Part shown: positions 24,671-40,223 of the stretch, in pieces
How the letters are laid out: every line of letters starts with the position of its first letter
How positions within the stretch are numbered: the first letter of the stretch is position 1
Assembly (NCBI GenBank): GCA_030627005.1
Contig: DAOUSW010000005.1
Location: 3,470-67,469, forward strand
Source of the DNA: Methanosarcinaceae archaeon
GTDB taxonomy: Archaea; Halobacteriota; Methanosarcinia; Methanosarcinales; Methanosarcinaceae
Length of the DNA stretch: 64,000 nt
Direction of reading: 5' to 3'
The notes under the pieces: generated by a model
The model's input: only the letters and a program-made list of their open reading frames with translations
Databases searched by the model: none
Told to the model about the DNA's origin: nothing
Program-made: the position numbers and the translations under genes

Positions 24671-24925
24671 AGTAAGGTATTTCCATCTATATTATAAAAA
24701 AGAGCAGCTGGGAGGGATAACTGGCCAGGGTTCGGCTTTTTTCCGGTTAATTTTCAAAGTACCTGCCAAACACTTTCCTGTCTGAGGTTTCTCGAATACG
24801 GGAATTCGATACTGTTTTAATATATGTAGTTATATATACCCTTTATATTCTTTGATCTTGTTATCTGTCAGGTTTGTTCACATGGTGGCAACATTTAGTT
24901 GTCAAGATTTAAGGGAGTGGTAGGA

Positions 24926-27805
24926 ATGAATTTCATCTCTGTACTGGCCTCGAAGGCAAGAGAAGATATGCATTTGCGCATTACGCTAATTAATGGCGAA
25001 ACTATAGAAGGGGATGTCATTGACATTAACAACGAGGGCGTACTCGTCATAAACAATGATGTATTATCGGGCATTTCTTTCAAGATGGTCGGGGTATGGC
25101 AATTAGGCCTTAAAGAGACTAATAAGCCCGATGATCCCCTTACTCTAAAAGTAGCTCCCATTTACGCTGAGAATGAGGGGAATGATTCCTGTCTGCCTGA
25201 AGGTCTGCCTGAAGGTCTGCCTGAAGGTCTACACGAAGGTCTACACGAAGGTCTACATGAAGGTCTACATGAAGGTCTACATGAAGATCTGCCTGAAGAT
25301 CTGCATGGGTGTCTGCACGAAGATGACCTTGAAGTTTTCCTGGTCGGCTTTTCCCCGTATAATACCGTTCTTTCGGACATAGAACCAAATAAGCACATCC
25401 CCACACCACCTGATTTTCTCCATAAGGAGGAGAAGGATACTGATAGGAATACGTGGGATAGCATTCTCAGCCGTTATCAGAATGCTGAGGTAAATAACAA
25501 CCCGGAATACCTGGAATTTTTATCTGAAGAAATGATTTTTCTGGGGAGCAGATACCCGGGGTCAGGGGTCTTTTACTATAACGCTGCCTGTTTTAAGTTG
25601 AAGTGCTGCAACTATCCTGATGCGGGCCAATTGTTTGAGAGGGCGTTTAAGCTCGATAAAAAAAGTGAGTATCTTTATAACGCTGCCTTCGCCTACCTTC
25701 ATGAAGAAAACAAGCCGAAAGCCCTTGTCAGTCTTGGGATCTATTTCTGCATTGAGAACCCCCTCTCAGACATAAAAATGTGGTATAAATTCTGTGATAT
25801 TGTCAAAGAGACCGGGGACTACTATGTTTTCAAAAATGTCCTGCATGAGGTTTTAATCAAATTCTGCTCTCCCGATGAAGAATCAGCCGATTTGTTGAAG
25901 CTGCTGCTCCAGTCGGTTGTTTATGTATTTAAGGACGTAAATATTTTACAGGAGAAACTAATCCCCCTCCTTCGCTTAATTAAAAACAACAACCTGGACC
26001 CTGGCAGCGGGCAGGTTAAGCTTCATATGGGCCTTCTTGATGAATTAACGGACTTTCCCGGCTTATGTAAGCCCAATGATTCTTTTGATCGGATGGTCCT
26101 GTTTTTGAACTGCGACGATGGAGGCCGCGGTTCGGTTTTCGGGCCCGAGCTCGTTAATGCAGGGGACGGCGTGGGGAACGGCAATGCAAATCCCGTGAAC
26201 CTTGAACCTCCCCTTGAAATGTACGTTTCTCCCGCAGGTCTCCGGGTTTCGGGTTTTATGACTCCGGAGAGCCCCGGGTTTGCAAGTAAAGGAAGTTTTG
26301 AGTTTGCAAGTAGGGAAGGTTCGGAGGGTTCAAATGAGGAAAGCAAGGAGTTCCCAGGCAAGGACGAGGATGGAATTTCATTATCAGAGCATTACTCTAC
26401 AGGCCTGAAGAGCGGGCATATTTACCGGACGATTCCTCCGGGCAGGTATGGTTTCCTGAGAGATGGGGACGGAAGGGAATATCATTTCAAATACGAGGAT
26501 GTTTTGGGGAACGCGGGGTATATTGATAGTGCTACCGAGGACAACCAGTTTCCCGTTTTATTCAAATGCAGAGCCAGTACTCTGGAAGATGTGGCTACTC
26601 CCAATACGGCTTATATCGTCTTTTCCACGGAATTACTGGATAATATCATTGCTCTGGCCAGGCAATTTTCCCGGGAAAAGGATTACCCTCATGCAATCCT
26701 CGAATTAAAAACCGTACTCGATTATGATCCTGATAACTTCGAAGCCGGAAATTTGAAAGAGAGGTGGGAAAAGTTATACGAAGAAAAGTACATGACAAAT
26801 CTTGACAAAAACAAAATTAATTTTGAACCTAAAAATGAAGCTGAGTGGAGGCATAAAGCCGATCTGATGCTTAAGCTGGGTATGTGTGAAGAAGCTCTGG
26901 ATGCCTTTAATCGTGCAAAGTCCGGGATGTCGAGTTCTCTTTACGGGCAGGGCATCGCATACCTGAAAACGGGAGCATATGCTGAAGCCGTTGAATGTTT
27001 TAAAAAGGTCCTTGTAAAAACCCCCCTGTATTACCATGCCAGTTATGCCAGAGGGCTTGCGTACCAGCGCCAGGGGATGTATAAAAGTGCCCTGGAAGAT
27101 TTCAATGAGGTCGTAAGGCTCCGGCCTGACTATCAGGATGCCTGGAAACAAAAGGCGTTTGTACTGGACCAGCTGGAAAAGTTTGAGGAATCCATAGAGG
27201 CATACGATATGAGTCTGGCCCTGGTCCCCACGGACTGGAAGGCTCTTTCCAGAATGAGTTCGGTCCTTACCAAACAGAACCGGCTTTCTGAAGCAATGGA
27301 ATGCGTAGAAGAAGCTTTAAGGCATGTCCCTGACCACCCGGATTCCCTTTTTGCAAAGGGATATATCTTCCAGAAAGAAGGCAAACTCGATAAAGCCCTG
27401 GAATGGATCGAAAAGAGCCTTGAATATAATCCGGGGAATGTAAAAGCCCTTACCAAAAAAGCGTATATCCTTGCAAAATTAGGGGACCACGGGGCCGCAG
27501 TCGACGCAATTGAAAAAGCTATCCACCTGAACATGAATAACCCCAAGACCTGGTATTACAGGGGGGTCATTTTCCATTATTCGGGAGATCATGAAAAAGC
27601 AATTTCTTCATACCTTTGCTCTCTCGAGCTCAAGCCCGGGGTAAAAAGGGTAATCTCCTGTAAGGAAAGAGCTGAAAAAAGCCTGGCTCTTTCCCTGAAA
27701 TTGGTTCAGGAGGCAAATGAGGAAAAAGCCTTCCCTTTGAACTCAAGTCCCGAATTAGACGAACTTGTCTCACAATTCAATAAAATTCATTCTCACAGCA
27801 GCTAA
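24926..27805 (+). CDS. Large TPR protein with putative Sm-like N-terminus and cold-shock/OB-like segment
   Basis: Many C-terminal TPRs (AWKQKAFVL, TWYYRGVIF); GRYGFLRDGDGREYHF; internal 12 bp EGLP/EGLH repeat. Confidence 0.75.
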   Translation: MNFISVLASKAREDMHLRITLINGETIEGDVIDINNEGVLVINNDVLSGISFKMVGVWQLGLKETNKPDDPLTLKVAPIYAENEGNDSCLPEGLPEGLPEGLHEGLHEGLHEGLHEGLHEDLPEDLHGCLHEDDLEVFLVGFSPYNTVLSDIEPNKHIPTPPDFLHKEEKDTDRNTWDSILSRYQNAEVNNNPEYLEFLSEEMIFLGSRYPGSGVFYYNAACFKLKCCNYPDAGQLFERAFKLDKKSEYLYNAAFAYLHEENKPKALVSLGIYFCIENPLSDIKMWYKFCDIVKETGDYYVFKNVLHEVLIKFCSPDEESADLLKLLLQSVVYVFKDVNILQEKLIPLLRLIKNNNLDPGSGQVKLHMGLLDELTDFPGLCKPNDSFDRMVLFLNCDDGGRGSVFGPELVNAGDGVGNGNANPVNLEPPLEMYVSPAGLRVSGFMTPESPGFASKGSFEFASREGSEGSNEESKEFPGKDEDGISLSEHYSTGLKSGHIYRTIPPGRYGFLRDGDGREYHFKYEDVLGNAGYIDSATEDNQFPVLFKCRASTLEDVATPNTAYIVFSTELLDNIIALARQFSREKDYPHAILELKTVLDYDPDNFEAGNLKERWEKLYEEKYMTNLDKNKINFEPKNEAEWRHKADLMLKLGMCEEALDAFNRAKSGMSSSLYGQGIAYLKTGAYAEAVECFKKVLVKTPLYYHASYARGLAYQRQGMYKSALEDFNEVVRLRPDYQDAWKQKAFVLDQLEKFEESIEAYDMSLALVPTDWKALSRMSSVLTKQNRLSEAMECVEEALRHVPDHPDSLFAKGYIFQKEGKLDKALEWIEKSLEYNPGNVKALTKKAYILAKLGDHGAAVDAIEKAIHLNMNNPKTWYYRGVIFHYSGDHEKAISSYLCSLELKPGVKRVISCKERAEKSLALSLKLVQEANEEKAFPLNSSPELDELVSQFNKIHSHSS

Positions 27806-28082
27806 TAAATTGCGAAAAATTGTTTTTTATTGAGTTTCCTGCATGGGTTTATTGTTTAGAAAGGTGTTCTGGCTGTCTATATTGCCCCACATTACAAAGA
27901 CTGCAATACATGCCCTTGCGTAATTACGTCCAGGGCATAGTGAACATGGAAAACTATTTGTATTAATTGTGAATCCTCACTTTGTGTATAATTATAGGGT
28001 GCCAGCCTCGACCAGCCTCGACAGCCTCGACAGCTCAGTCCGGGAAAAGATGGATGAACACGAATACGATGGGTAAAGACAT

Positions 28083-30851
28083 ATGAGCAATAAGCAGACT
28101 CATAACCAGAATCCGGAGCAGAAAGCCAGAGATGATATTGATAGAAAACTAACCGAGTCTGGCTGGATAGTGCAGGAAAAGACCGGGATAGATTGGAATG
28201 CTTCCAGGGGCATTGCGGTTAAGGAGTACCTGACCGATGTGGGGCCGGTTGATTATGTACTCTTTGTTGATAAAAAGCCCGTTGGAATCATTGAGGCGAA
28301 AAGGGACGAGGAAGGCCATCGGTTAACCGTTGTTGAGGAACAATCCTCTGAGTATGCTGCAAGCAAGCTAAAGTATCTGAACAATGACCCTCTTCCTTTT
28401 GTGTACGAGAGTACCGGGGAACTTACCCGATTCACAGACTTCCGTGACCCGAAACCCAGGTCAAGACCTGTTTTTTCATTTCTCCGGCCCGAGACTTTTG
28501 AGGAATGGCTCAAAAAAGATAAACCTTTGAGGGAAAGGTTTCTGGATATACCCGAATTGCGGACAGAAGGGCTGCGGGACTGCCAGATTACCGCTATCTC
28601 AAATCTTGAAAAATCCTTTAAGGACAACCGCCCGAGGGCGCTGGTCCAGATGGCAACAGGTTCCGGAAAGACCTATACTGCCATAACCTTCATCTACCGA
28701 TTACTAAAATTTGCGGATGCCAAAAAGGTCCTGTTCCTTGTCGATACCAAAAACCTGGGTGAACAGGCCGAGCAGGAATTCATGGCTTATGTGCCCAATG
28801 ACGACAACCGCAAATTTACCGAGCTGTACAATGTACAGCGCCTGCGTTCCAGTTATATCTCATCGGACAGCCAGGTCTGCATTTCCACAATTCAGCGGCT
28901 TTACTCTATTTTGAAGGGGGAGGAGCTGGACGAGAAAACCGAGGAAGAAAACCCCGCTGAGAAAGGATGGCAGCCAAAGGAACCGCTTCCTGTTGTGTAT
29001 AATGAGAAGGTCCCCCTTGAAGTGTTTGATTTTGTGGTCATAGACGAGTGCCACCGTTCCATATACAACCTCTGGCAGCAGGTGCTTGATTATTTCGATG
29101 CTTTTTTGATTGGCCTGACAGCTACCCCGGACAAACGCACATTCGCGTTTTTCAATGAGAACGTGGTGAGCGAGTACAGCCATGAAGAAGCTGTGGCAGA
29201 CGGCGTGAATGTGGGCTATGATGTGTACACCATCGAGACTGAAATCAGCAAAAACGGGGCAACGATAAATGCGCGGGAGTTTGTGGACAAACGGGTGAAA
29301 CTTACCCGTAAAAAACGCTGGGAACAGCTGGATGAAGCTGTCACCTATACTGCTAAGAAGCTGGACAAAGACGTGGTAAACCCCAGCCAGATCCGGCATG
29401 TGATACGGACATTCAAGGAAAAGTTGCCTGAGATCTTCCCCGGCAGAGAGGAAGTCCCAAAAACCCTGGTCTTTGCCAAGAGTGACAGCCATGCCGATGA
29501 TATCATCAATATACTGCGGGAAGAGTTCAACGAAGGCAATGCCTTTTGCAAGAAAGTGACCTACAAAGCGGAAGAAGATCCAAAATCGGTGCTGGCAGAT
29601 TTCCGCAACGCTTACAATCCCAGAGTAGCGGTTACGGTGGACATGATTGCCACGGGTACGGATGTTAAGCCCCTGGAATGCCTGCTCTTCATGAGGGACG
29701 TCAAGAGCCTCAATTATTTTGAGCAGATGAAAGGCCGGGGCACAAGGACCCTGGGCTATGATGACCTGAAAAAGGTGACAACATCGGCTGTTTCTGCCAA
29801 GACGCATTTTGTAATTGTGGATGCCGTGGGCGTTACAAAGACCTTAAAGACCGACAGCAGGCCTCTGGAACGCAAAAGAAACACGCCTCTGAAAGACCTG
29901 CTTGCAGCAGTAACCTTTGGCGCCCGCGACGAAGACCTTTATGTTTCCCTGGCTTCCCGCCTTGCAAGGCTGAACAGGCAGATAAGTGAAGATGAAAGGG
30001 CCACTTTTGCTGAGAAAGCTAACGGAAAAACTCTCAATCAGACCGTAAAGGACCTTCTCAATGCATATAACCCCGATATCATCGATCTCAAAGCTTCCGA
30101 AATTCAACTGCGCCAGCCGGAAATCCAGGACGCCGATGCTCAGAAAAAGGCACATGAAACCCTGATTGATGTTGCAAGGTCCACCTTTTCCGGCGAGCTG
30201 AACGAGTACATCGAAAACGTCCGCAGGGTCCATGAGCAGATAATCGATGCCGTGAACACCGACACCGTGCTCAGGGCCGAATGGGACAAAGACGCCGTGG
30301 CAAAGGCAGACGAGCTGATCATTGACTTTAAGGCATATATGGAAGCCAACAAAGACGAGATCTCAGCCTTGAGAATCTTCTATAACCAGCCCTACCAGCG
30401 CAGGGACGTCACCTTCACGATGCTAAAAGAAGTCCTGGAAAAGCTGAAACTCGAAAAGCCCCACTTCGCCCCCTTCAGGGTCTGGCAGGCTTACGAGCAG
30501 CTTGAAAAGGTAAACGGCAACTCCCCCAAAAACGAACTCATAGCCCTGGTCTCCCTGATCCGCAGGATAACCGAGATCGACCCTGTCCTCACAGCCTACG
30601 ACCGGACCGTAAACCGGAACTTCCAGGACTGGGTATTCAAAAAACAGGCAGGAACCCTGAAATTCAATGACGGCCAGATGAACTGGCTCCGCATGATAAA
30701 AGATTATGTGGCTACCAGCTTCCACCTGGAAATAGACGACCTTGACTACACTCCCTTCGATGCCCCTGGCGGGCGCGGCAGGATGTACCAGCTTTTCGGG
30801 GACGAGATGAATTTGCTTATAAGTGAATTGAATGAGGCCCTGGCGGCGTGA
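28083..30851 (+). CDS. hsdR: Type I restriction endonuclease subunit R (EcoEI/type IB-like)
   Basis: DYVLFVDKKPVGIIEAK nuclease motif, MATGSGKT, VIDECHRS, QMKGRGTR. Confidence 0.93.
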   Translation: MSNKQTHNQNPEQKARDDIDRKLTESGWIVQEKTGIDWNASRGIAVKEYLTDVGPVDYVLFVDKKPVGIIEAKRDEEGHRLTVVEEQSSEYAASKLKYLNNDPLPFVYESTGELTRFTDFRDPKPRSRPVFSFLRPETFEEWLKKDKPLRERFLDIPELRTEGLRDCQITAISNLEKSFKDNRPRALVQMATGSGKTYTAITFIYRLLKFADAKKVLFLVDTKNLGEQAEQEFMAYVPNDDNRKFTELYNVQRLRSSYISSDSQVCISTIQRLYSILKGEELDEKTEEENPAEKGWQPKEPLPVVYNEKVPLEVFDFVVIDECHRSIYNLWQQVLDYFDAFLIGLTATPDKRTFAFFNENVVSEYSHEEAVADGVNVGYDVYTIETEISKNGATINAREFVDKRVKLTRKKRWEQLDEAVTYTAKKLDKDVVNPSQIRHVIRTFKEKLPEIFPGREEVPKTLVFAKSDSHADDIINILREEFNEGNAFCKKVTYKAEEDPKSVLADFRNAYNPRVAVTVDMIATGTDVKPLECLLFMRDVKSLNYFEQMKGRGTRTLGYDDLKKVTTSAVSAKTHFVIVDAVGVTKTLKTDSRPLERKRNTPLKDLLAAVTFGARDEDLYVSLASRLARLNRQISEDERATFAEKANGKTLNQTVKDLLNAYNPDIIDLKASEIQLRQPEIQDADAQKKAHETLIDVARSTFSGELNEYIENVRRVHEQIIDAVNTDTVLRAEWDKDAVAKADELIIDFKAYMEANKDEISALRIFYNQPYQRRDVTFTMLKEVLEKLKLEKPHFAPFRVWQAYEQLEKVNGNSPKNELIALVSLIRRITEIDPVLTAYDRTVNRNFQDWVFKKQAGTLKFNDGQMNWLRMIKDYVATSFHLEIDDLDYTPFDAPGGRGRMYQLFGDEMNLLISELNEALAA

Positions 30852-30856
30852 GTTCA

Positions 30857-31025
30857 GAGAAAACTGTGGTGAAACTGTGGTGAAACTGTGGTGAAAAGTG
30901 GGGTGAAAATAATCGGATAAAAGCAAAAAAATAAGCATCTTGCGGTGGAAAATTGATCATAAAAGAGGAGAATAGGTTGGGAGAATAGTTTGGGAGAAAA
31001 GTGGGGAAAAAAGTGGGGTGAAAAC
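30857..31025 (+). repeat. Degenerate repeats (GAAACTGTGGT x3; AAAAGTGGGG units), possible gene remnant
   Basis: Direct reading; partly translates as KVGKKVG-like low-complexity text. Confidence 0.5.
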
Positions 31026-31242
31026 TAGCATCCCGGGGTAATTCATAGACTTTCTTTTTCTCACCGTTTTCAGTACTGGTGGACACGACCTCAATTACGT
31101 CAGGAATGTATATTATCAATGAATTGTTATTATTAATGGGGCGGTTTATGATGGGCAGGCGAAGAGCATGGAACGCTTCTCTGTACTTTTGGAAGAGATA
31201 AATAAAGACAATAAGTGAATAATATATTGGGAGTTGAGGTGT

Positions 31243-31614
31243 ATGGGAATAGCTGAAGAAACGCAAGTTCCAAGGCACAGGACTTTTGTGGCGTCAACGG
31301 AAATAAAAGGATCTAAGATCCTTACTGTTAAAGATGAAGAACTCGGAACGATTAAAGAAGTCATGATTGACTCTGAATGGGGAAGAATCGCATACGTAGT
31401 ATTTGCTTGTGATTGTTTTCTTGGTATGAAGTGTAAATTCTTTGCCATTCCTTGGGGAGCTCTTGAAGCAAATCTAGGAGAGTATATCCTTAAAGTTGAT
31501 AAGGGAGCATTCAAAACGGCAGAAGGCCTGGATGAAAATGTGTGGACTTTAAATCGTAACGATTTGGTTAAAGTGTATGAACAGTATAATGTTCCTCCTT
31601 ACTGGGAAGTTTAA
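31243..31614 (+). CDS. PRC-barrel domain protein
   Basis: GAGGTG then ATG; IKGSKI...LGTIKEVMID...GRIAYVV...FFAIPW. Confidence 0.88.
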   Translation: MGIAEETQVPRHRTFVASTEIKGSKILTVKDEELGTIKEVMIDSEWGRIAYVVFACDCFLGMKCKFFAIPWGALEANLGEYILKVDKGAFKTAEGLDENVWTLNRNDLVKVYEQYNVPPYWEV

Positions 31615-31841
31615 AAGCTCATTTTCGGGTGATGATTTAGCCATATATGGGAACCATAGGACGTTGTTTAAGAATGTAATAATTAGTACAGCATTTGATG
31701 TACACACTGATCGACAGAGTATATGACTGATGATTTACAGGTAGACTTTGCAAAAATACTACTGGTATATATTACTCAGAATAATATAACCGCTAGTATT
31801 TTATACTTTAACTTACATATTATATATTGTTCACAAGGAAC

Positions 31842-32440
31842 TAAGCTGTAAAATGAAGCAAATTCAGGACAGAGTAAAACCTGATCCCGCAATAAACTTC
31901 ATTGACGCGTAAGCTGTAAAATGAGGCAAATTCAGGACAGAAAAATCTGATCCCGTATAATACTTCATTGGCGCGTAGCTATAAGGTGGAGCAAATTCAG
32001 GACGGCTTGAAAACCGATCCCGTAATCTACTTCATTTATGGCGTAAACTGCGAAATGAAGCAAATTCAGGGCAGTCTGATATCTGATCCCGTAATCTACT
32101 TCATTTATGGTGTAAACTGCGAAATGAAGCAAATTCAGGACAGGGTAAAAGCTGATCCCGTAATCTACTTCATTGACGTGTAAGCTTAAAATGGAGCAAA
32201 TTCAGGACAGAATAATCTGATCCCTCAATAAACTTCATTGGCGCGTAGCTATAAGGTGGAGCAAATTCAGGACGGCTTGAAAACCGATCCCGTAATATAC
32301 TTCATTTATGGCGTAAACTGCGAAATGAAGCAAATTCAGGACAGTCTAAAATCTGATCCCGTAATATACTTCATTGACATGTAAGCTTAAAATGGAGCAA
32401 ATTCAGGACAGAAAAATCTGATCCCTCAATAAACTTCATT
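31842..32440 (+). repeat. Array of 9 structured units, period 65-69 bp
   Basis: Consensus RTGRAGCAAATTCAGGAC-N8/10-CYGATCCCG-N6-ACTTCATT-N15-18; unit starts 31853, 31921, 31986, 32055, 32124, 32191, 32256, 32325, 32392. Confidence 0.95.
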
Positions 32441-33045
32441 GATGCAGACCAAACCTTGTGAACCCCTTATTCACTCTTTTAATCAAAGTTAAAGCGTCTA
32501 GATGTTGTTTCCTCTTCTTTTACTGTTTTTCTCAGCTTTTTGTTTTAGATATTTAACAAGCAACGTAATTATACTGTTTTGAGCCAAAATGAGCAGAATT
32601 CCTGTCTACAGACACTTCCACGTAGTATGAAAAATGTTTTCACTTTAGAAGGTGAAAATTAGTGAAATACCGGGATTGTCTGAATACATATTTACGTTCA
32701 CAATCCCAATCATCCCCGGTTAATTTTCAATGGTACACTATTTTCGAGATGCTTTTTTTGTTTGCGGCTCTAATACAGACCTATATGCTTTTATACAGTT
32801 TTAATTTCTTGTTAAATTACTGAAAGGCACGAGTAGACAATTATTTAATCAACTGACATCTTAAAAGTACTTCAAAATTGATAATGTTCGAATACAGATT
32901 TATATGAGGCTCTGGCGGCTTGAATACAAATGTATAATATTCAATTTAAATTTGACCGATTTGCGGTTTAAGTGAACTATATTCATATATATCTAAACAG
33001 TATAAATTTATACAGTGTTTTCATGAATGGGGTTGATAAGGAATT

Positions 33046-34533
33046 ATGAAACTTCTATATGATACAAATATTTTAATTCACATTCAAGATCCAAAAGAGC
33101 TTTCTCCCAATCTTCAAGCATTGTTAACAATAATCCGAGAACATGGTCATCAGGAGTTTATCCATCCTGCTTCTTTGAAGGATATCGAAAATGATAATGA
33201 TACTGAAAGAAGGAGAATAACTTTATCAAAGCTTCGTGGTTATCCTCTGCTTCCTTCACCGCCTACTCCAGATGATGAGTTTACATCTTTAGTAGGTATT
33301 CCCGTAAATTCACATGATGAAAATGACAACGAAATTCTTTTTTCACTTAAAAAAAATCTTGTAGATTTCCTCATAACAGAAGATAAAGGAATCGGAAAAA
33401 AAGCCAATTTACTGAATCTTGATGATAGAGTGCTTTCAATTGATTCAGCTCTCAATTATTTTACGGCCTTATATCAACGTTTTTTCCCTAATCATAGTTT
33501 ATTGAGGAAATGCTATGCTCATGAAATTGATATTAATCAACCGTTTTTTGACTCACTTAAATCAGATTATGGAGATGCGGATTTTAAAAAATGGTATGAT
33601 AAATGTATCAAAGAAAGTCGTGAATGTTACACTTATGAAGAGAATGACAAAGTTAAAGCTTTTCTCATGCTAAAAGAAGAAAATGAAGTTATTGAAACAC
33701 ATTATCCCATTCCTGCCACAAAAAGAGTTAAAATTGCAACACTAAAGGCCGATTTATCAGGTTCTAAAATGGGCGAACTCTTCCTCAAAATAGCTTTTCA
33801 GTATTGCATAAATAATCAGATTTTTGAAATTTACTTAACTCATTTTGAAACTGAAGATGACACCTTATCTTATCTCATTGAGAACTTTGGTTTTGAAAGA
33901 GTAGGAGAGCTGGCAAAGAATGATGAACCGGTATATCTAAAGAAACTTATCCCGGAAACTACTGAATTACGGCCATTAGAAATTGCTAGAAAATCCTATC
34001 CTTGCTTTAAAGATAGTGAAAGTGTTAACAAATTTGTGATCCCAATTCTTCCCGAATTTCACGATATTCTATTTCCTGAATACAAAAGAAGGCAAATGAA
34101 ATTGACAGATTATTTTGAAATCAATATTCCTGGCAATGCAATAAAAAAGGCATATCTTTCATCACGATTTTCTTCCAGATTGGGACTCGGAGACATAATT
34201 CTTTTTTATCGTTCACATGATCAAAAAGCGATAACTTCTCTCGGAATAATTGATCAGGAACCAATACGAACCAGTAATTTAGATGAACTTAAAAGAATAG
34301 TAGGTAAAAGAAGTGTATATTCTGAAGAAGAACTTAAAAAATGGGCAGAAAAATCAGTTTTTGTTATCCGTTTCAAGCATCACTTATACTTACCAAATCC
34401 TCTGAATCTGAGTTATCTCATAGAAAATGATATTTTGAAAAGTGCCCCACAATCGATAACTGAAATAAACCATGAACAATATCTATCTCTAAAAACTGGT
34501 GGCAAACTCGATGAACGTTTTACTGTCAATTAA
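33046..34533 (+). CDS. PIN + GNAT + EVE/PUA-like fusion protein
   Basis: LYDTNILI...HDENDNEIL...LITED (PIN); KIATLK...GELFLK...FGF (GNAT); GNAIKKAYL...GDIILFYRS...APQSITEI (EVE/PUA-like). Confidence 0.8.
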   Translation: MKLLYDTNILIHIQDPKELSPNLQALLTIIREHGHQEFIHPASLKDIENDNDTERRRITLSKLRGYPLLPSPPTPDDEFTSLVGIPVNSHDENDNEILFSLKKNLVDFLITEDKGIGKKANLLNLDDRVLSIDSALNYFTALYQRFFPNHSLLRKCYAHEIDINQPFFDSLKSDYGDADFKKWYDKCIKESRECYTYEENDKVKAFLMLKEENEVIETHYPIPATKRVKIATLKADLSGSKMGELFLKIAFQYCINNQIFEIYLTHFETEDDTLSYLIENFGFERVGELAKNDEPVYLKKLIPETTELRPLEIARKSYPCFKDSESVNKFVIPILPEFHDILFPEYKRRQMKLTDYFEINIPGNAIKKAYLSSRFSSRLGLGDIILFYRSHDQKAITSLGIIDQEPIRTSNLDELKRIVGKRSVYSEEELKKWAEKSVFVIRFKHHLYLPNPLNLSYLIENDILKSAPQSITEINHEQYLSLKTGGKLDERFTVN

Positions 34534-36526
34534 ACCAAAGTATGTTGATGAAATTCTAGCTGGTAAAAAGATATTTGAGTTTAGAAAATCCATTTTCAAA
34601 AAAAAGGATATAGGCAAAGTATTCATTTATTCGAGTTCTCCTGTCAAAAAAATAGTTGCATCATTCGAGATTGCCAGAATCATTGCCGATTCTCCTCAAA
34701 AACTCTGGAATAAATGCCAGAAATATGGAGGAATCCCTGAAAATGACTTTTTTGAGTATTTCAAAAATTCAGATATTGGTTATGCAATAGAAATAACCAA
34801 TCTTAATGAGTTTTCTGAGCCAATTAATCCCTACAAATTAAAACAGGACTTTAGACCACCACAATCTTACTGTTATTTACCTTTGGATTATTTTGAAAAT
34901 ATAAACATCAACAGTATTCCAAGAATAAAAAAACAGGATATGGTGCTGTTGGAATCAGGTAATGAATATTTCTCCAATTCAGATACCAATAAAAACTCCA
35001 GCAAAAAACATACACAAACTAAACTTTCCAATGAAGATGAATTTCAAAAGATGCCAGGACTGTCAGAAGGGTTGCTGAAAAATAACATGATTATGGAAGA
35101 GAGAGCTGGATGGATAGAAACTGAATTGGGTCAAGTAGCTGAAATTATAATGGGACAATCGCCACCATCTTCAACTTACAATGAATATGGTATTGGACTC
35201 CCTTTTTTTCAAGGAAAAGCAGAGTTTACTGAACTACACCCCCTTGTTTCAAAATGGTGTTCAGAGCCAAAGAAGATTGCTGAATCAAACGATATTCTAA
35301 TTTCGGTTAGAGCCCCAGTTGGAGCAACAAATATTGCTAACCAAAAGTGTTGCATTGGTAGAGGATTAGCAGCCATTCGTTACCCCGATTGCAACAAGTA
35401 TGTGTTCTACTTTTTGAGATTAATTGAAAAAGAATTGGATAAAAAAGGTACTGGCACGACCTTTAAAGCGATTTCAGGTTCAGTTTTAAAGAGTGAAGGA
35501 ATCCCTTTAGCTCCTCTTCCCGAACAACGCGCCATAGTCTCCAAAATCGAGCAGCTCTTCAGCGAACTGGACAACGGCATTGCCAACCTCAAACTGGCAC
35601 AGGAACAGCTCAAGGTGTATCGGCAGGCGGTGCTGAAGAAGGCGTTTGAAGGGGAGCTTACGAAAAAATGGCGGGAGCAGCAGACTGATCTGCCGGATGC
35701 GGGGGATTTGCTGGAACAGATTAGGAAGGAAAGAGAAGAAGCTGTAAAAGCCTCCGGCAAAAAACTGCAAAAAACTAAGCCTTTTACTGAAGTGGAATTG
35801 ACAGAGTTACCGAGACTACCCGAAGGATGGGGATGGGAAAGATTGGAGGGAGTCGGATATTGGACAGGAGGTGGAACTCCTTCAAAACAAAACCATTCTT
35901 ATTGGAATAATGGTGATGTTCTTTGGGTTTCTCCAAAAGATATGAAAACTACGTTGATTTTAGATACCGGAGATAAAATAACCAAAGATTCAATTGAGAA
36001 TTCTTCCGCAAAATGGATAGCTAAAGATTCAATACTTTTTGTTGTTAGAAGTGGAATCATTAGAAGAATTTTGCCGATCGCATTAGCAGGGAAAAACCTC
36101 ACAACAAACCAAGATTTACAATCATTGACTTTATTTTGGGGAGATAAAGATTATGTATTCTGGTATTGCCAGGCTAATGAGCAAGTCATTAGGGAAAAAT
36201 GCGCTAAAGATGGTACAACTGTAGACAACATTGAAGTTCCACGTTTGAAATCATACCCGATAGCAATTTGTTCCCTCCCTGAACAACAAGCCATCGTTCA
36301 GGAAATCGAAACCCGCCTTTCAGTCTGCGACAAGATAGAGCAGGATATAAAAGAGAATCTGGAAAAAGCCGAAGCACTTCGGCAGAGTATTTTGAAAAAA
36401 GCGTTTGAGGGGAAGTTGCTTAATGAAAGGGAGCTGGCAGAGGTTCGAGGGGCAGAGGATTGGGAGCCGGCTGAGGTTTTGCTGGAGAGGGTGAAGGCTG
36501 AGAGAGCAGGGAATGGGAAGACGTGA
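34511..36526 (+). CDS. hsdS: ASCH domain fused to type I RM specificity subunit S
   Basis: MNVLLSIKP..GKKIFEFRK...PPQSYCY (ASCH), ~60 aa linker, then two TRDs with conserved PLPEQRAIV...LKKAFEG and PEQQAIV...LKKAFEG; single open frame. Confidence 0.88.
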   Translation: MNVLLSIKPKYVDEILAGKKIFEFRKSIFKKKDIGKVFIYSSSPVKKIVASFEIARIIADSPQKLWNKCQKYGGIPENDFFEYFKNSDIGYAIEITNLNEFSEPINPYKLKQDFRPPQSYCYLPLDYFENININSIPRIKKQDMVLLESGNEYFSNSDTNKNSSKKHTQTKLSNEDEFQKMPGLSEGLLKNNMIMEERAGWIETELGQVAEIIMGQSPPSSTYNEYGIGLPFFQGKAEFTELHPLVSKWCSEPKKIAESNDILISVRAPVGATNIANQKCCIGRGLAAIRYPDCNKYVFYFLRLIEKELDKKGTGTTFKAISGSVLKSEGIPLAPLPEQRAIVSKIEQLFSELDNGIANLKLAQEQLKVYRQAVLKKAFEGELTKKWREQQTDLPDAGDLLEQIRKEREEAVKASGKKLQKTKPFTEVELTELPRLPEGWGWERLEGVGYWTGGGTPSKQNHSYWNNGDVLWVSPKDMKTTLILDTGDKITKDSIENSSAKWIAKDSILFVVRSGIIRRILPIALAGKNLTTNQDLQSLTLFWGDKDYVFWYCQANEQVIREKCAKDGTTVDNIEVPRLKSYPIAICSLPEQQAIVQEIETRLSVCDKIEQDIKENLEKAEALRQSILKKAFEGKLLNERELAEVRGAEDWEPAEVLLERVKAERAGNGKT

Positions 36527-36555
36527 GAAGGCTCGGTGATTACTACGGGAGCGCG

Positions 36556-36802
36556 GAGGGTCACGAATACCCCGACTTTCAAGTTGGGGATGAAGTGAAC
36601 CCTCGCACGTTTTTTTGTGCCCCTTTAGATTGAAATCCCTTACTCCTTTGTAATTTGAGGTTTCTCGGTATCATGATTACAGGAGTTCGAATTGCTACTC
36701 TAATATTAAAGAAACTTTGTCAAACGATACTAAACACTTCCCAAGAAACCGGGCGGGCGGCCCGAAGCATACCCCACCTTTTAAGGTGGGGTGGCCGCCC
36801 GC
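36556..36802. mobile_element. Pair of related compound hairpins, possible IS200/IS605-type end remnants
   Basis: CCCCGACTT-TC-AAGTTGGGG (36570-36589) and ACCCCACCTT-TT-AAGGTGGGGT (36771-36792), each inside an outer GC stem. Confidence 0.4.
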
Positions 36803-36926
36803 AATTTGATTTGTTTATATGATCACTCCTATTGCTGATGAGAAAACTGAGGGTGCAATTGAGGGCGTAAAAACATAAACCACAGGATCAAAGGATATCA
36901 TCGGCTGGTTAAATGATACTGTTAAT

Positions 36927-37088
36927 TACCCCCCAAGCTACCCCCCAAGCTACCCCCCAAGCTACCCCCCCAAGCTACCCCGCAGGCTACCGCGCAAGTT
37001 ACCCCGCAAGTTACCCCGCAGCCACCCAGCAGGCTACCGCGCAAGCTACCGCGCAAGCTACCGCGCAAGCTACCGCGCAAGTTACCGA
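36927..37088 (+). repeat. 12 bp tandem repeat (CCCCAAGCTACC / GCGCAAGCTACC), PQAT/PQVT-coding
   Basis: Direct reading; about 13 degenerate units. Confidence 0.85.
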
Positions 37089-37170
37089 GTAAGCTGGCAA
37101 TAGATGTTGAAAATCAAGTTTCGTAAAGAAGAAATACAAAAATATTACTCTCATCTCAAGGATCCAAACC

Positions 37171-38703
37171 ATGTCTGAAAATACCTCATCCATCGTTTCC
37201 AAAGTCTGGAGCTTCTGCAACGTCCTGAGGGACGGGGGCGTGAGCTACGGTGATTATCTGGAACAGTTGACCTATCTCATTTTCCTGAAAATGGCTCAGG
37301 AGTACAGGAAGGAGCCATATAACAGGGATATTGGTATCCCGGAGGAATATACCTGGGACAGGCTGAAACAGCAGCGTGGAGCGGAGCTCGATACTCATTA
37401 CAAGGGGCTCTTGGAAGAGCTGGGGAAAAAGCCGGGAATGCTGGGGCAGATCTTCCTCAAGGCCCAGAACAAGATAAGCGACCCTGCAATGCTGTACAAG
37501 GTCATTGATATGGTCGATAAGGAAAGCTGGGTCATGATGGGTGTGGATACCAAGGGAGAAATCTACGAAGGGCTCCTGCAGAAGAACGCAGAAGATACAA
37601 AAAGCGGAGCCGGACAGTACTTCACCCCGAGGCCTCTTATCAAGGTCATGGTCCGGTGCCTGCAGCCCGAACCCCTGAAGACCATAGGTGACCCCTGCTG
37701 CGGTACAGGCGGGTTCTTTTTAGCAGCTTATGACTTCCTTACCTCACAGCACAGGCTGGACCGGGAACAGAGCCGCTTTTTGAAAAACAAAACCTTTGGA
37801 GGGAATGAGATCGTCGCAGGGACCAGACGGCTTGCCCTTATGAACATGTTCCTGCACAACATCGGGGAAATCGACGGGGAGCCCATGATCTCCAATTCCG
37901 ACGCTCTTATAGCCGATCCCGGCTACCGTTACGATTACATCCTCACCAACCCGCCCTTCGGAAAGAATAGCAGCATGACCTTCACCAACGAAGAAGGCGA
38001 GCAGGAAAAAGAAGAGCTCACCTACAACCGTCAGGACTTCTGGACAACCACGAGCAACAAGCAGCTCAACTTTGTGCAGCATATCCACACCATCCTAAAA
38101 ACCGGCGGGCAGGCAGCAGTAGTACTGCCGGACAATGTGTTGTTTGAAGGCGGAGCAGGGGAGACCGTGCGCAAAAAGCTTCTTGAGACCACCGACCTGC
38201 ACACAATCCTGCGCCTGCCGACAGGCATCTTCTATGCGAATGGGGTAAAGGCAAACGTGCTTTTCTTTGAGGCAAAACCCGCAGCCAAAGAGCCCTGGAC
38301 AAAAGAAGTGTGGATCTACGACTACCGCACAAATGTGCACCACACCCTCAAAAAGAATCCGATGAAGTATTCGGACCTGGAAGACTTTGTCAAATGCTAT
38401 AACCCCGAAAACCGTTTCAGCCGTACTGAGACCTGGAGCGAAGAAGCTCCCGAAGGCAGGTTCCGGAAATTCGGCTATGAGGAAATTGTAGCAAGGGATA
38501 AAACGAACCTGGATATCTTCTGGCTCAAGGACAAAAGCCTTGCTGACCTGGACAACCTTCCGGACCCAGATATTCTTGCAAACGAGATCATCGAGAATAT
38601 GGAGGCTTCGCTGGCAAGTTTCAAGGAGATTATGCTCACAATTAATGGAAACGGGGGAGACAACGGAAGCGGGGGAGACAATGGAAACGGGTACGGGAAT
38701 TGA
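37171..38703 (+). CDS. hsdM: Type I RM N6-adenine methyltransferase subunit M
   Basis: GAGQYFTPR, DPCCGTGGF, LTNPPFG, VVLPDNVLF. Confidence 0.95.
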   Translation: MSENTSSIVSKVWSFCNVLRDGGVSYGDYLEQLTYLIFLKMAQEYRKEPYNRDIGIPEEYTWDRLKQQRGAELDTHYKGLLEELGKKPGMLGQIFLKAQNKISDPAMLYKVIDMVDKESWVMMGVDTKGEIYEGLLQKNAEDTKSGAGQYFTPRPLIKVMVRCLQPEPLKTIGDPCCGTGGFFLAAYDFLTSQHRLDREQSRFLKNKTFGGNEIVAGTRRLALMNMFLHNIGEIDGEPMISNSDALIADPGYRYDYILTNPPFGKNSSMTFTNEEGEQEKEELTYNRQDFWTTTSNKQLNFVQHIHTILKTGGQAAVVLPDNVLFEGGAGETVRKKLLETTDLHTILRLPTGIFYANGVKANVLFFEAKPAAKEPWTKEVWIYDYRTNVHHTLKKNPMKYSDLEDFVKCYNPENRFSRTETWSEEAPEGRFRKFGYEEIVARDKTNLDIFWLKDKSLADLDNLPDPDILANEIIENMEASLASFKEIMLTINGNGGDNGSGGDNGNGYGN

Positions 38704-38748
38704 AACTACTGCCCGCTCTAATTTTGTCTCCCGGTTGAGAACCGGACT

Positions 38749-39420
38749 TTACCCGGTCTCTTCCGGTACCTGTCGGGCGCGCCCGAAAACTATCCCCATC
38801 AGCAGGAACACAAAGGGGGAGACCCCGGCGTAGCCCAGGATTCCGATATTTCGGACATTCATGTTTGCAAGCGGTACCCCGATTAACCCCGCAAGACTCA
38901 GTAAGCCGCTGGCAACCATAAGAATCCGAACAGTTTTCTCCAGCCTTCCTCTCCTGAATACAGGTGCGGCAAAGAGCATTGAGAGGGCAAAGAAAAAGTC
39001 CCATGCGAGTATGTCCATTGTATATGCTACGGACGGCCAGCTGAAGGAAAAGAATAGTGAAGCCAACGGCAATCCCGCAGCCTCGATCTGACGGCTTACA
39101 GTAAGGATAACGAAGTGGACACTACAGGTAATGCTTGCCATAAGGACCATAAATGCAAGTGCAGTATGGCTGTACATTCTGGTCTCGGGAGAGGCATAAG
39201 CGTGAACTGCGACCATAACAATGACCATCAAGGGCGCCATCACAACGATGAGCAGTTCCAGTATGGTGAAGAAAGGGTCCCCGATCGGGTCTTCGGGCGA
39301 CTTGAGTGAGAGGAATCCAAGAACCAGCGTAAGCAGATATGCTATCAGGAGGAAAAACACGGCCAGGGCTGCAGCTCTTCCCAGGCTGCGGTGTTGTCTG
39401 GTGAAGCCTTCATGTTCCAT
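38749..39420 (-). CDS. Hypothetical multi-pass membrane protein
   Basis: About six hydrophobic segments. Confidence 0.7.
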   Translation of the reverse strand: MEHEGFTRQHRSLGRAAALAVFFLLIAYLLTLVLGFLSLKSPEDPIGDPFFTILELLIVVMAPLMVIVMVAVHAYASPETRMYSHTALAFMVLMASITCSVHFVILTVSRQIEAAGLPLASLFFSFSWPSVAYTMDILAWDFFFALSMLFAAPVFRRGRLEKTVRILMVASGLLSLAGLIGVPLANMNVRNIGILGYAGVSPFVFLLMGIVFGRARQVPEETG

Positions 39421-39449
39421 CGTTCAACTCCTTTCGTCGCGGTGTTACT

Positions 39450-40223
39450 TTACGTGACATCTTGAAACAATATGCAGCGCATGGAAACCGACGCATAAAC
39501 TATTTCTTCGCAAAAAAAGCTGGCAGTCTCGTTTTTGTCTGTTGCGCCAAGGGCGTAGATTAGAGGGATATAATGTTCGGCGGAATTGACAGATAATATT
39601 GCGTCTTCCCCGAGTGATTCGTAATTGACCAGCTTCAGGTCGTCCCTGGCTGTAACATATTTTTTCACTTTTTCATCAAAATTGATTGCCCATTTATATG
39701 GAGTTTCGGACATTCTTGCCAGCATGAGGTTATGCACGACGTTTCCGGTGCAAAAAATCAGGATTCCCTCTTCTCTTAATTTGTAGAGTTTCCTTGCCAG
39801 TTCATAGTGCTGCTGCATGCTGAGTTTTCGATTTATGCTGAGTTCGACTACCGGGATGTCAGCATCAGGATACATCCTTGAAAGTACACACCAAACTCCG
39901 TGGTCAATGCTCCATTTGCCATCAAAATTAACTTCTTTAACCAGGTCTTTTACTTTTGTAACAAGTTCCTTTGAACCGGGACACTCGTATTTCTGGTCAT
40001 ATAATTCCTGTGGGAATCCATAAAAATCGTGGATTGTTTTAAGCTTCTCGCTTGAAGTAACACTGGTATCCTCTCTCTCATAGTGTGCGGATATGGCCAG
40101 TATTGCTTCAGGTTTTGGAATTTTTTTGGAAATATTTCTCCAGCCTCTTGTAAACTCATTGTCCTCTATGGCATTCATGGGGGAACCATGGCCTATGAAC
40201 AGAACTGGCATAATTTTTTCCAT
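39450..40223 (-). CDS. 4,5-DOPA-type extradiol dioxygenase (YgiD/LigB-like)
   Basis: PVLFIGHGSPMN, ISAHY, TIHDFYGFP, DHGVW, GNVVHNL, EHYIPL. Confidence 0.9.
   Translation of the reverse strand: MEKIMPVLFIGHGSPMNAIEDNEFTRGWRNISKKIPKPEAILAISAHYEREDTSVTSSEKLKTIHDFYGFPQELYDQKYECPGSKELVTKVKDLVKEVNFDGKWSIDHGVWCVLSRMYPDADIPVVELSINRKLSMQQHYELARKLYKLREEGILIFCTGNVVHNLMLARMSETPYKWAINFDEKVKKYVTARDDLKLVNYESLGEDAILSVNSAEHYIPLIYALGATDKNETASFFCEEIVYASVSMRCILFQDVT

Follow-up and report, generated by a model that had tools for sequence, protein, structure and literature searches.

Several computational studies have described a gene pair in which a PIN-GNAT-EVE protein is encoded together with an ASCH-domain partner. 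The architecture was set out, with families PIN_15 and PIN_17, by Matelska 2017 (PMC5499597), and Bell, Wolf and Koonin 2020 (PMC7641849) reported that PIN-GNAT-EVE proteins are associated with type I restriction-modification (R-M), that the ASCH partner is near-universal and that in Methanohalophilus it is fused to HsdS, none of the modules being characterised. In alpha-proteobacteria the ASCH partner is instead fused to an XRE helix-turn-helix (HTH) domain, like classical antitoxins (PMC7641849, PMC5499597). As cited in both of these papers, Iyer et al. 2013 had described the operon and proposed that it acetylates DNA bases. PADLOC catalogues the pair as the candidate defence system PDC-M11 (see also Payne et al. 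2024), the PDCs having been derived through 'guilt-by-embedding' in type I R-M, BREX and DISARM systems and being predictions only (bioRxiv 10.1101/2024.01.29.577857). Here we present an analysis of such a pair at 33046 to 36526 of a 64,000-nucleotide stretch of DNA from a Methanosarcinaceae archaeon (GenBank assembly GCA_030627005.1, contig DAOUSW010000005.1), which we refer to as the window and whose numbering is used throughout.

The pair is almost certainly a member of the '(PIN)-GNAT-EVE + ASCH' cassette, PDC-M11. Gene A (PIN-GNAT-EVE, 495 aa, 33046..34533, + strand) matches the PDC-M11A model PDLC04422 at E 3.9e-147, with residues 1-494 aligned to profile positions 1-500 of 501, and the ASCH part of the adjacent gene B matches the PDC-M11B model PDLC04424 at E 1.8e-49 over residues 3-134, so that the A-model match and the adjacent B-model match by which PADLOC recognises this candidate defence system are both present. 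The window pair has the same two genes, domain order, full-length HMM matches, R-M association and ASCH-HsdS fusion as the described operon, and no essential difference sets it apart. The initial annotation was therefore right that similar pairs had been noted computationally in defence contexts and that the mechanism is uncharacterised, since full-text literature searches returned neither later work on 'GNAT-EVE' nor an experimental study of the cassette; the PADLOC check that it called for does find a catalogued system, and the novelty that it implied is low, as the R-M link and the fusion are already published. What is added here is the fixed overlap of the two genes with its internal Shine-Dalgarno (SD)-like motif, the occurrence of the fusion in Methanosarcina, Methanolobus, Methanococcoides and Methanohalophilus, the consistent placement of the cassette directly 5' of hsdS even where the genes are unfused, and an EOLA1-type Ser/Lys/Glu/Arg motif in the ASCH domain.

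The cassette lies in a type I R-M operon of a Methanosarcina-like archaeon, in the order hsdR, gene A, ASCH::hsdS and hsdM, all on the + strand. The restriction subunit HsdR (922 aa, 28083..30851) is identified by Pfam ResIII (2.8e-41), EcoEI_R_C (1.2e-37) and HSDR_N and by PADLOC REase_I, and the methyltransferase HsdM (510 aa, 37171..38703) by Pfam N6_Mtase (5.9e-67) and HsdM_N and by PADLOC MTase_I (3.9e-194). Both Pfam and PADLOC thus find a complete HsdR, HsdM and HsdS set, in which HsdS is present only as the ASCH fusion. This is the one point at which the initial annotation has to be corrected, because it had placed a separate ASCH gene, ending at 34900, between hsdR and hsdS. The reading frame contains no stop near that position and continues in frame through a full HsdS to 36526, and the second gene is therefore ASCH::hsdS, a single open reading frame (ORF) of 671 aa (34511..36526, +, with an upstream in-frame GTG at 34499) in which the N-terminal PDC-M11B match is followed by a Specificity_I match (1.4e-71) over the remainder. 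The ASCH domain comprises residues 1 to ~129 (34511..34897). It is followed by a polar linker of ~70 aa (34898..35110), delimited by the alignment of fused proteins and by AlphaFold2 (AF2) confidence, and by an HsdS moiety (35111..36526) with two target-recognition domains (TRDs) and conserved helices, which Pfam Methylase_S matches in two stretches (2.7e-34). From 34511, frame 0 stays open for 202 codons and the other frames hold 11 and 23 stops; when the 72 codons of the linker are shuffled, the frame remains open with P = 0.002. In the AF2 model of the fusion, residues 110-201 have a predicted local distance difference test score (pLDDT) of 26-37, so that this region is predicted to be disordered, and the model's predicted template modelling score of 0.32 is too low for any statement on packing of ASCH against HsdS.

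The fused ORF (605-714 aa) was found in the window, in eight genome loci, in the complete genome of M. siciliae HI350 and in at least 15 protein clusters. By genus, these are Methanosarcina (L001-L003 and M. siciliae HI350), Methanococcoides (L004), Methanolobus (L006, L018) and Methanohalophilus (L007 and protein clusters), together with one Methanosarcinaceae metagenome-assembled genome (MAG; L005); a fused orthologue is present in L086 too. The linkers vary between genera in both length and sequence and the ASCH invariant residues are all kept; TRD1 varies among the fused orthologues, which means that the fusion persisted while specificity domains were swapped. Most of the orthologues have no Met ahead of the conserved start of HsdS (W-x-x-x-x-L), and no internal Met is conserved, so the only HsdS made from these genes carries ASCH. 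In the annotation of M. spelaei, HsdS begins at an internal start. Methanocellales have this gene order without the fusion, hsdS starting 14 nt past the ASCH stop, and the A-ASCH pair also stands directly 5' of an unfused hsdS in distant lineages (L008, L024, L028, L049, L074, L076).

Genes A and B overlap by 23 nt (34511..34533, +), from the ATG of ASCH::hsdS at 34511 to the gene A stop at 34531-34533, and this dual-coding overlap is exactly 23 nt in 69 of 75 loci. An SD-like GGTGG (34498..34502, +), which codes for the conserved Gly-Gly of the C-terminus of A, lies 8 nt 5' of the ASCH ATG. At 10 of the 11 archaeal and bacterial junctions inspected, L023 being the exception, GGTGG, GGAGG or GGCGGAGG occupies the same place, and across loci the distance from motif to ATG is 7-10 nt. 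The fixed overlap and the internal motif are together strong evidence that A and ASCH are translationally coupled, which would give them a fixed stoichiometry; the initial annotation had reported the overlap and drawn the same conclusion from it. Upstream of A, at ~41 nt from its start, a TATA-like box, TATAAATTTAT (33001..33011, +), is a putative archaeal promoter. Here ATAAATTTAT is invariant in an alignment of the window with M. spelaei, Methanosarcina UBA8098 and M. siciliae, and nucleotide homology with relatives begins at 32883. The box, along with an SD-like leader upstream of A, suggests that A-ASCH::hsdS has a promoter of its own. A scan for sigma-70 promoters and terminators gave counts near the shuffled expectation and is not meaningful for an archaeon.

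As a side observation on this block, nucleotide identity between Methanosarcina genomes is 96%, 92% and 88% over A-ASCH (32883-35837) and 82-83% over hsdR (28102-30851), which may reflect either a recent transfer of the cassette between genomes or stronger constraint, the latter arising partly from dual coding.

The ASCH protein of Zymomonas mobilis, ZmASCH (PDB 5GUQ/5GUS), is a ribonuclease that depends on Mg and acts specifically on single-stranded RNA (ssRNA); it binds both ssRNA and ssDNA, and its Y47, K53 and S128 contribute to binding or cleavage. The ASCH domain of the window is homologous to it over its whole length, matching 5GUQ at E 5e-11 as a single sequence and at 2e-23 with the 74-sequence family profile, and keeps Y47, K53, S128 and the G-x-K-x-x-E-x-R strand. 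The two differ in that identity is ~30%, that the C-terminus of the window protein is HsdS and not HTH, and that RNase activity in the window protein is only putative. The chain name of the ZmASCH PDB entry, 'Helix-turn-helix domain-containing protein', fits the HTH-ASCH type of partner in GNAT-EVE operons, a link that we infer. Pfam ASCH scores the domain at 20.4 bits, slightly below the 21.2-bit cut-off, and in the 74 partner sequences S6, K20, E23, R25, Y40, W66, Y83, P117 and Q118 are invariant. Within this set S6/K20/E23/R25 correspond to S7/K21/E24/R26 of human EOLA1 (the K-x-x-E-x-R strand and an N-terminal Ser/Thr), and by this motif the domain is tentatively assigned, within the ASCH superfamily, to the TRIP4/EOLA1-like clade. 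An August 2026 preprint describes human EOLA1, an ASCH protein of that clade, as an N4-acetylcytidine (ac4C) deacetylase (K21/E24/R26 and S7) and reports bacterial relatives in R-M operons, beside endoRNases; murine EOLA1 has been reported inactive. E. coli YqfB likewise has the ASCH fold, and a YqfB-type ac4C amidohydrolase (Lys21, Thr24, Arg26, Glu74) was considered and rejected because its Thr24 nucleophile is replaced by an invariant Glu, E23, in the window ASCH, where catalysis by the K-E-R set is only putative. A HMMER search of the ASCH family against PDB gave no match to YqfB or EOLA1.

Gene A is less readily resolved by single-sequence searches. NCBIfam holds no model for it, Pfam on the single sequence gave only weak EVE and PIN_3 matches, both under the cut-offs, and the full-length protein against PDB sequences returned nothing but spurious cytochrome oxidase matches (E 0.2). 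A profile of the N-terminal family region also found nothing among PDB sequences, and the PIN assignment was settled by a Pfam scan of 34 family members. PIN_3 (PF13470) was found in 33 of the 34 N-terminal regions, from diverse loci, with a best E of 2.1e-7 over profile positions 1-114 of 115, the match in the window's own protein (E 0.014, 16.7 bits) lying under the 27-bit cut-off. The domain extends over residues 1 to ~142 (33046..33471, +), where the alternation of strands and helices in the AF2 model fits the alpha/beta PIN fold; the Foldseek list for the whole protein was taken up by GNAT and ASCH matches. Residues D6, D50, D94, T111 and D113 are at least 97% conserved among 72 sequences, and T7 and N8 are conserved too. 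The acidic active-site set is, to judge by this alignment, intact, and some of its residues would bind metal.

Near the first PIN aspartate, residue 14 (33085-33087) is Gln in the window and in four of the 71 aligned loci, M. horonobensis P0002 and Methanolobus P0020 carrying the same residue, and is Glu in 67 of the 72 sequences (HIEDP changed to HIQDP).

The central domain (residues ~151-301, 33496..33948, +) has a GNAT fold. In the AF2 model of gene A (pLDDT 82), residues 154-300 follow the canonical GNAT order beta1-alpha1-alpha2-beta2-beta3-beta4-alpha3-beta5-alpha4-beta6-beta7, and Foldseek matched PaiA (1TIQ), Naa50, NatD and others with probability 1.00 and E ~1e-4. In place of a canonical motif A, the beta4-alpha3 loop reads x-x-x-G239-x-K241-x-G243-E244 and is invariant; R227, K229, T232, T265, D272, E294 and K299 are invariant as well, and H266 is found in 69 of 72 sequences. 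The strict conservation of the loop, of T265/H266 and of E294/K299 argues that the pocket of the GNAT-like domain is functional, perhaps not as a standard acetyltransferase. The C-terminal domain (residues ~325-495, 34018..34530, +) is an EVE/ASCH-like PUA domain. Pfam EVE (PF01878) matched 20 of 21 members (best 3.5e-5), the window's own score of 16.4 bits being under the 23-bit cut-off, and Foldseek matched ZmASCH 5GUQ (E 2.9e-7) and the EVE proteins 2GBS and 1ZCE. Its invariant residues are K329, P333, G363-N364, K368-A369-Y370 and F387-Y388, with Y388 as the conserved EVE tyrosine. The initial annotation had read this 495-aa ORF as one with acidic PIN motifs, a central GNAT and a C-terminal EVE/PUA-like region, and each of these elements is confirmed.

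A genome scan for the gene A family yielded 79 loci, mostly archaeal (Methanosarcinales, Methanoperedens, Methanomicrobiales, Micrarchaeota, Thermoplasmatota, Altiarchaeota, Theionarchaea and an Asgard MAG), with a few bacterial ones. The cassette is widespread: at the protein level there are 1366 homologues in 90% clusters and 577 clusters at 50% identity (E<=1e-30), the latter mostly archaeal, nearly all of 480-510 aa and collinear. An ASCH gene follows A in ~75 of the 79 loci. Relative to its flanks, the module has the higher AT content at 70 of 70 loci (median difference in G+C -0.08), and in the window the G+C content is 0.325 for gene A and 0.303 for the ASCH part against 0.498 for hsdR, 0.515 for hsdM and 0.458 for the whole, in agreement with the AT-richness remarked on earlier. 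A Pfam census of two genes on each side of the pair found N6_Mtase 20 times, ResIII/EcoEI_R_C 10, Methylase_S 10, AlbA_2 with HATPase_c_4 13, YhcG nuclease 4, GmrSD 3 and AbiEii-like AAA_21 3; the cassette thus sits in a defence-island setting, although only some 25-33% of the loci (a quarter to a third) have type I R-M genes close to the pair. Six matches were found in 2.9 million viral contigs, three of them beside DNA-methylase-like (HsdM) genes, and a viral origin is unlikely.

Some loci of Methanoperedens, Methanovorans and Methanolobus carry, after ASCH, a second GNAT with a C-terminal ASCH-like region, which is a separate gene in L009 (5676-6932) and part of a fused ASCH-GNAT-ASCH protein of ~566 aa in L036 (2348-4045) and L041 (11505-13202); GNAT and ASCH-type domains therefore recur together. 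In M. siciliae, a MULE transposase lies beside the module.

PrrC, to which the locus may be compared in its logic, is held latent by its R-M complex and unleashed when the phage T4 protein Stp inhibits that complex. It is found almost exclusively embedded in type I R-M systems (bioRxiv 10.1101/2024.01.29.577857). The window resembles PrrC/EcoprrI in having an effector with an RNase domain nested in a type I hsd operon, and the ASCH-HsdS link would allow the same control; it differs in having two genes, reader domains and a GNAT-like domain, and the presence of A on the R-M complex is only proposed. No PrrC model was among the PADLOC matches for A or B, so that the resemblance is one of logic only. 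A second comparison, already drawn in PMC7641849 and PMC5499597, is with TacT, AtaT and ItaT, the GNAT toxins of type II toxin-antitoxin (TA) systems that acetylate aminoacyl-tRNA. Common to both is a GNAT fold in a two-gene, TA-like cassette; those toxins, however, are single-domain proteins with a canonical acetyl-CoA motif and ribbon-helix-helix or HTH antitoxins, whereas the window protein has a non-canonical motif A and a GNAT domain flanked by PIN and EVE, with ASCH as its partner. What the window shares with type II TA systems in general is the coupled two-gene layout.

The best explanation overall, to which we give a probability of about 0.4, is that the pair is a TA-like defence cassette whose ASCH partner holds the effector on the R-M complex as a tether or a gate. 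Of its parts, a role in defence or addiction is probable, and the neighbourhoods, enriched in R-M, GmrSD, AlbA_2/HATPase_c_4, AbiEii-like AAA_21 and YhcG nuclease genes, support defence; the specific mechanism of gating through ASCH on HsdS is doubtful. Further evidence for the explanation comes from the two PDC-M11 matches and the domain assignments, the invariant catalytic-type residues in all three domains of A and in ASCH, the conserved overlap with its SD-like motif, the recurrent fusion to HsdS, the location 5' of hsdS in unfused loci, the low G+C relative to the flanks, the action of ZmASCH on ssRNA, the deacetylase activity of EOLA1 with its bacterial relatives in R-M operons, and the HTH fusions of the ASCH partner in alpha-proteobacteria. 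In this scheme gene A would be a latent effector or toxin acting on RNA. EVE would dock it on a modified or acetylated base, most likely in tRNA or another structured RNA, PIN would cleave, and the GNAT-like domain would acetylate or bind an acyl or nucleotide ligand. ASCH, made in stoichiometric amounts with A, would be the gating, antitoxin-like subunit, which would either bind A itself or bind or hydrolyse that same acetylated base, and the HTH-ASCH variants of alpha-proteobacteria fit the view that ASCH is an antitoxin-like domain able to join with various DNA-binding modules. In Methanosarcinaceae the gate would lie within HsdS, so that the effector is held on the type I R-M complex and reports its state; should anti-restriction proteins or the loss of hsdS, for example, disable or titrate that complex, the effector would be released and translation would stop, as a PrrC/EcoprrI-like back-up. 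A more specific version, in which ASCH::HsdS is a physical tether that parks a PIN-GNAT-EVE toxin, the R-M enzyme serves as infection sensor and the GNAT-like and ASCH domains form a writer/eraser (or ligand/gate) pair on ac4C-type RNA marks, is speculative and, we think, unlikely. The initial annotation had already proposed a back-up or abortive-infection arm guarding the R-M system, and that proposal, which keeps its conjectural standing, is strengthened by the covalent ASCH-HsdS link.

A number of observations weigh against this explanation. When R-M proximity was assessed by phmmer with the window's Hsd proteins across each locus and by the census of two genes per side, about two-thirds of the 79 loci had no type I R-M gene near the pair; the module is therefore independent of R-M and the link facultative, and a guard function therefore cannot be the general mechanism. 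The idea of a guard is weakened further by the possibility that the GNAT-like domain is dead, as motif A (R/Q-x-x-G-x-G/A), which binds the acetyl-CoA pyrophosphate, is absent, and Matelska 2017 (PMC5499597) judged such a GNAT-like domain without canonical motif A to be probably inactive. In the window's own protein, Q14 replaces the Glu that is kept in 67 of 72 relatives. The putative antitoxin is encoded after the toxin, which is the rarer order. Experimental work in the family is limited to ZmASCH, and a search of sequencing runs found the locus in metagenomic DNA contigs only (best 0.95 of sampled words, marine sediment), with a single RNA run at 0.09.

The first rival explanation, which we regard as unlikely, makes the cassette a reader of modified bases: ASCH on HsdS would bind modified DNA bases, such as N6-methyladenine or phage hypermodifications, and tune type I methylation or cutting, and PIN-GNAT-EVE would handle the modified or acetylated nucleic acids that phage GNAT-EVE proteins produce. 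For the Methanohalophilus fusion this was stated by Bell, Wolf and Koonin 2020 (PMC7641849). PUA-family domains (EVE, SRA, YTH, ASCH) are the usual sensors of modification-dependent restriction enzymes, the ASCH-like barrel of BapA binds 5-hydroxymethylcytosine DNA, the base being flipped out, relatives carry GmrSD type IV enzymes embedded within the same operons, and the fusion would place one ASCH per HsdS beside the DNA. Enzymes such as the EVE-HNH protein VcaM4I do resemble gene A in joining an EVE/PUA reader to a nuclease in a defence context, yet they use HNH or PD-(D/E)xK DNases and act alone on modified DNA, whereas the window has a PIN nuclease, a GNAT-like domain and an obligatory ASCH partner. 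That strict coupling of ASCH to A, at 69 of 75 loci, is left unexplained by a reader on HsdS, as are the many pairs, the majority, without an R-M neighbour; the predicted-disordered linker, of ~70-90 residues, favours a tether over a fixed reading head, and the sole characterised homologue acts on single-stranded RNA.

It is distinctly unlikely, in our estimate, that the cassette is a selfish or addiction element without a direct antiviral role, that is, a TA pair which stabilises itself and the R-M island by post-segregational killing, the fusion of an antitoxin-like ASCH to hsdS making the loss of hsdS lethal. The two-gene architecture with its coupled start is what such an element would have, and the low G+C relative to the flanks at all 70 loci, the patchy spread over archaea and bacteria, the 88-96% nucleotide conservation of A-ASCH in Methanosarcina genomes beside 82-83% for the adjacent hsdR, and the transposase adjoining the module in M. 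siciliae are all in keeping with this reading. Defence and addiction are, however, not mutually exclusive, and the several defence-gene neighbours and the detection through guilt-by-embedding are expected of defence cassettes; the EVE and ASCH readers, moreover, suggest recognition of a nucleic-acid mark, which would be superfluous for pure addiction.

Acetylation of DNA bases, as Iyer et al. 2013 are cited as having proposed, is improbable here. The GNAT domain would acetylate a DNA base to provide an additional epigenetic mark of self, with RNA perhaps guiding it by way of PIN; EVE and ASCH would read or erase the mark, and ASCH on HsdS would couple it to type I R-M. A GNAT and two PUA-like readers within one operon, the extra GNAT and ASCH-like genes or fusions directly after the pair in L009, L036 and L041, the EOLA1-type deacetylase motif in ASCH, and the fusion of ASCH to DNA-binding modules (HsdS here, HTH elsewhere) are all consistent with such a scheme. 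It is opposed by the missing acetyl-CoA pyrophosphate motif, by the membership of PIN in the VapC-like, RNase-type PIN_3 family and by the finding that ZmASCH does not cleave DNA. We know of no acetylated DNA base in archaea.

That the long ORF is an artefact of assembly or of a lost stop, or a decaying gene, in which a separate ASCH was joined to hsdS without functional meaning, is scarcely credible and can be dismissed: the unfused order in Methanocellales shows that loss of a single stop codon could join the two, and the M. spelaei annotation starts HsdS internally, but the frame is open, despite divergent linkers, in the window, in eight loci from four genera, in the complete genome of an isolate and in 15 or more protein clusters, shuffled linkers remain open with P = 0.002, and the fused proteins have no conserved internal Met and keep the ASCH invariants.

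The 2.2-kb gap between hsdR and gene A is AT-rich and contains a PRC-barrel ORF (31234-31614, Pfam PRC 4.7e-15), whose homologue in L005 lies 3' of hsdM instead, and a tandem array (31842-32440) of ~8.9 copies of a 69-bp unit with 77% matches and higher-order periods of 201 and 270 bp. The array is not CRISPR-like, because the whole unit repeats and spacers are absent, and an Rfam scan of 27000-40000, the array included, gave 0 matches. In the related operons of L001-L007, L018 and L086, the same hsd genes hold extra embedded genes that are absent from the window: an AlbA_2 + HATPase_c_4 + winged-helix-turn-helix protein (COG2865-like) between hsdR and A, and an AlbA_2/Fic-like_C protein or a GmrSD type IV enzyme between ASCH::hsdS and hsdM. 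The latter gap is 644 bp long in the window and contains ~13 copies of a 12-bp repeat, TACCCCGCAAGC (36927-37086); tblastn matches the repeat weakly to the low-complexity C-terminal part of the AlbA_2-type genes placed there in relatives, and the region may be the remnant of a deleted embedded gene; when tblastn was used to look for remnants of the relatives' extra genes, the sole match was this low-complexity one, at 36913-37033. Upstream of hsdR lies a TPR-repeat ORF of 968 aa (24899-27805), in which a 12-bp tandem repeat (25198-25307) encodes PEGLHEGL repeats.

Genes embedded in R-M systems are a productive source of new defence systems, and the fusion to HsdS provides a direct experimental handle on an effector that may ride on the R-M complex and on disablement of R-M as its possible trigger. 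The ac4C deacetylation ascribed to EOLA1 turns the idea of nucleic-acid acetylation by GNAT-PUA operons into a testable writer/eraser hypothesis. If the tether reading is true, the cassette would be an archaeal, non-homologous counterpart of PrrC/EcoprrI, and, as archaeal immunity beyond CRISPR and R-M is poorly known, a characterised archaeal cassette of this type would be useful.

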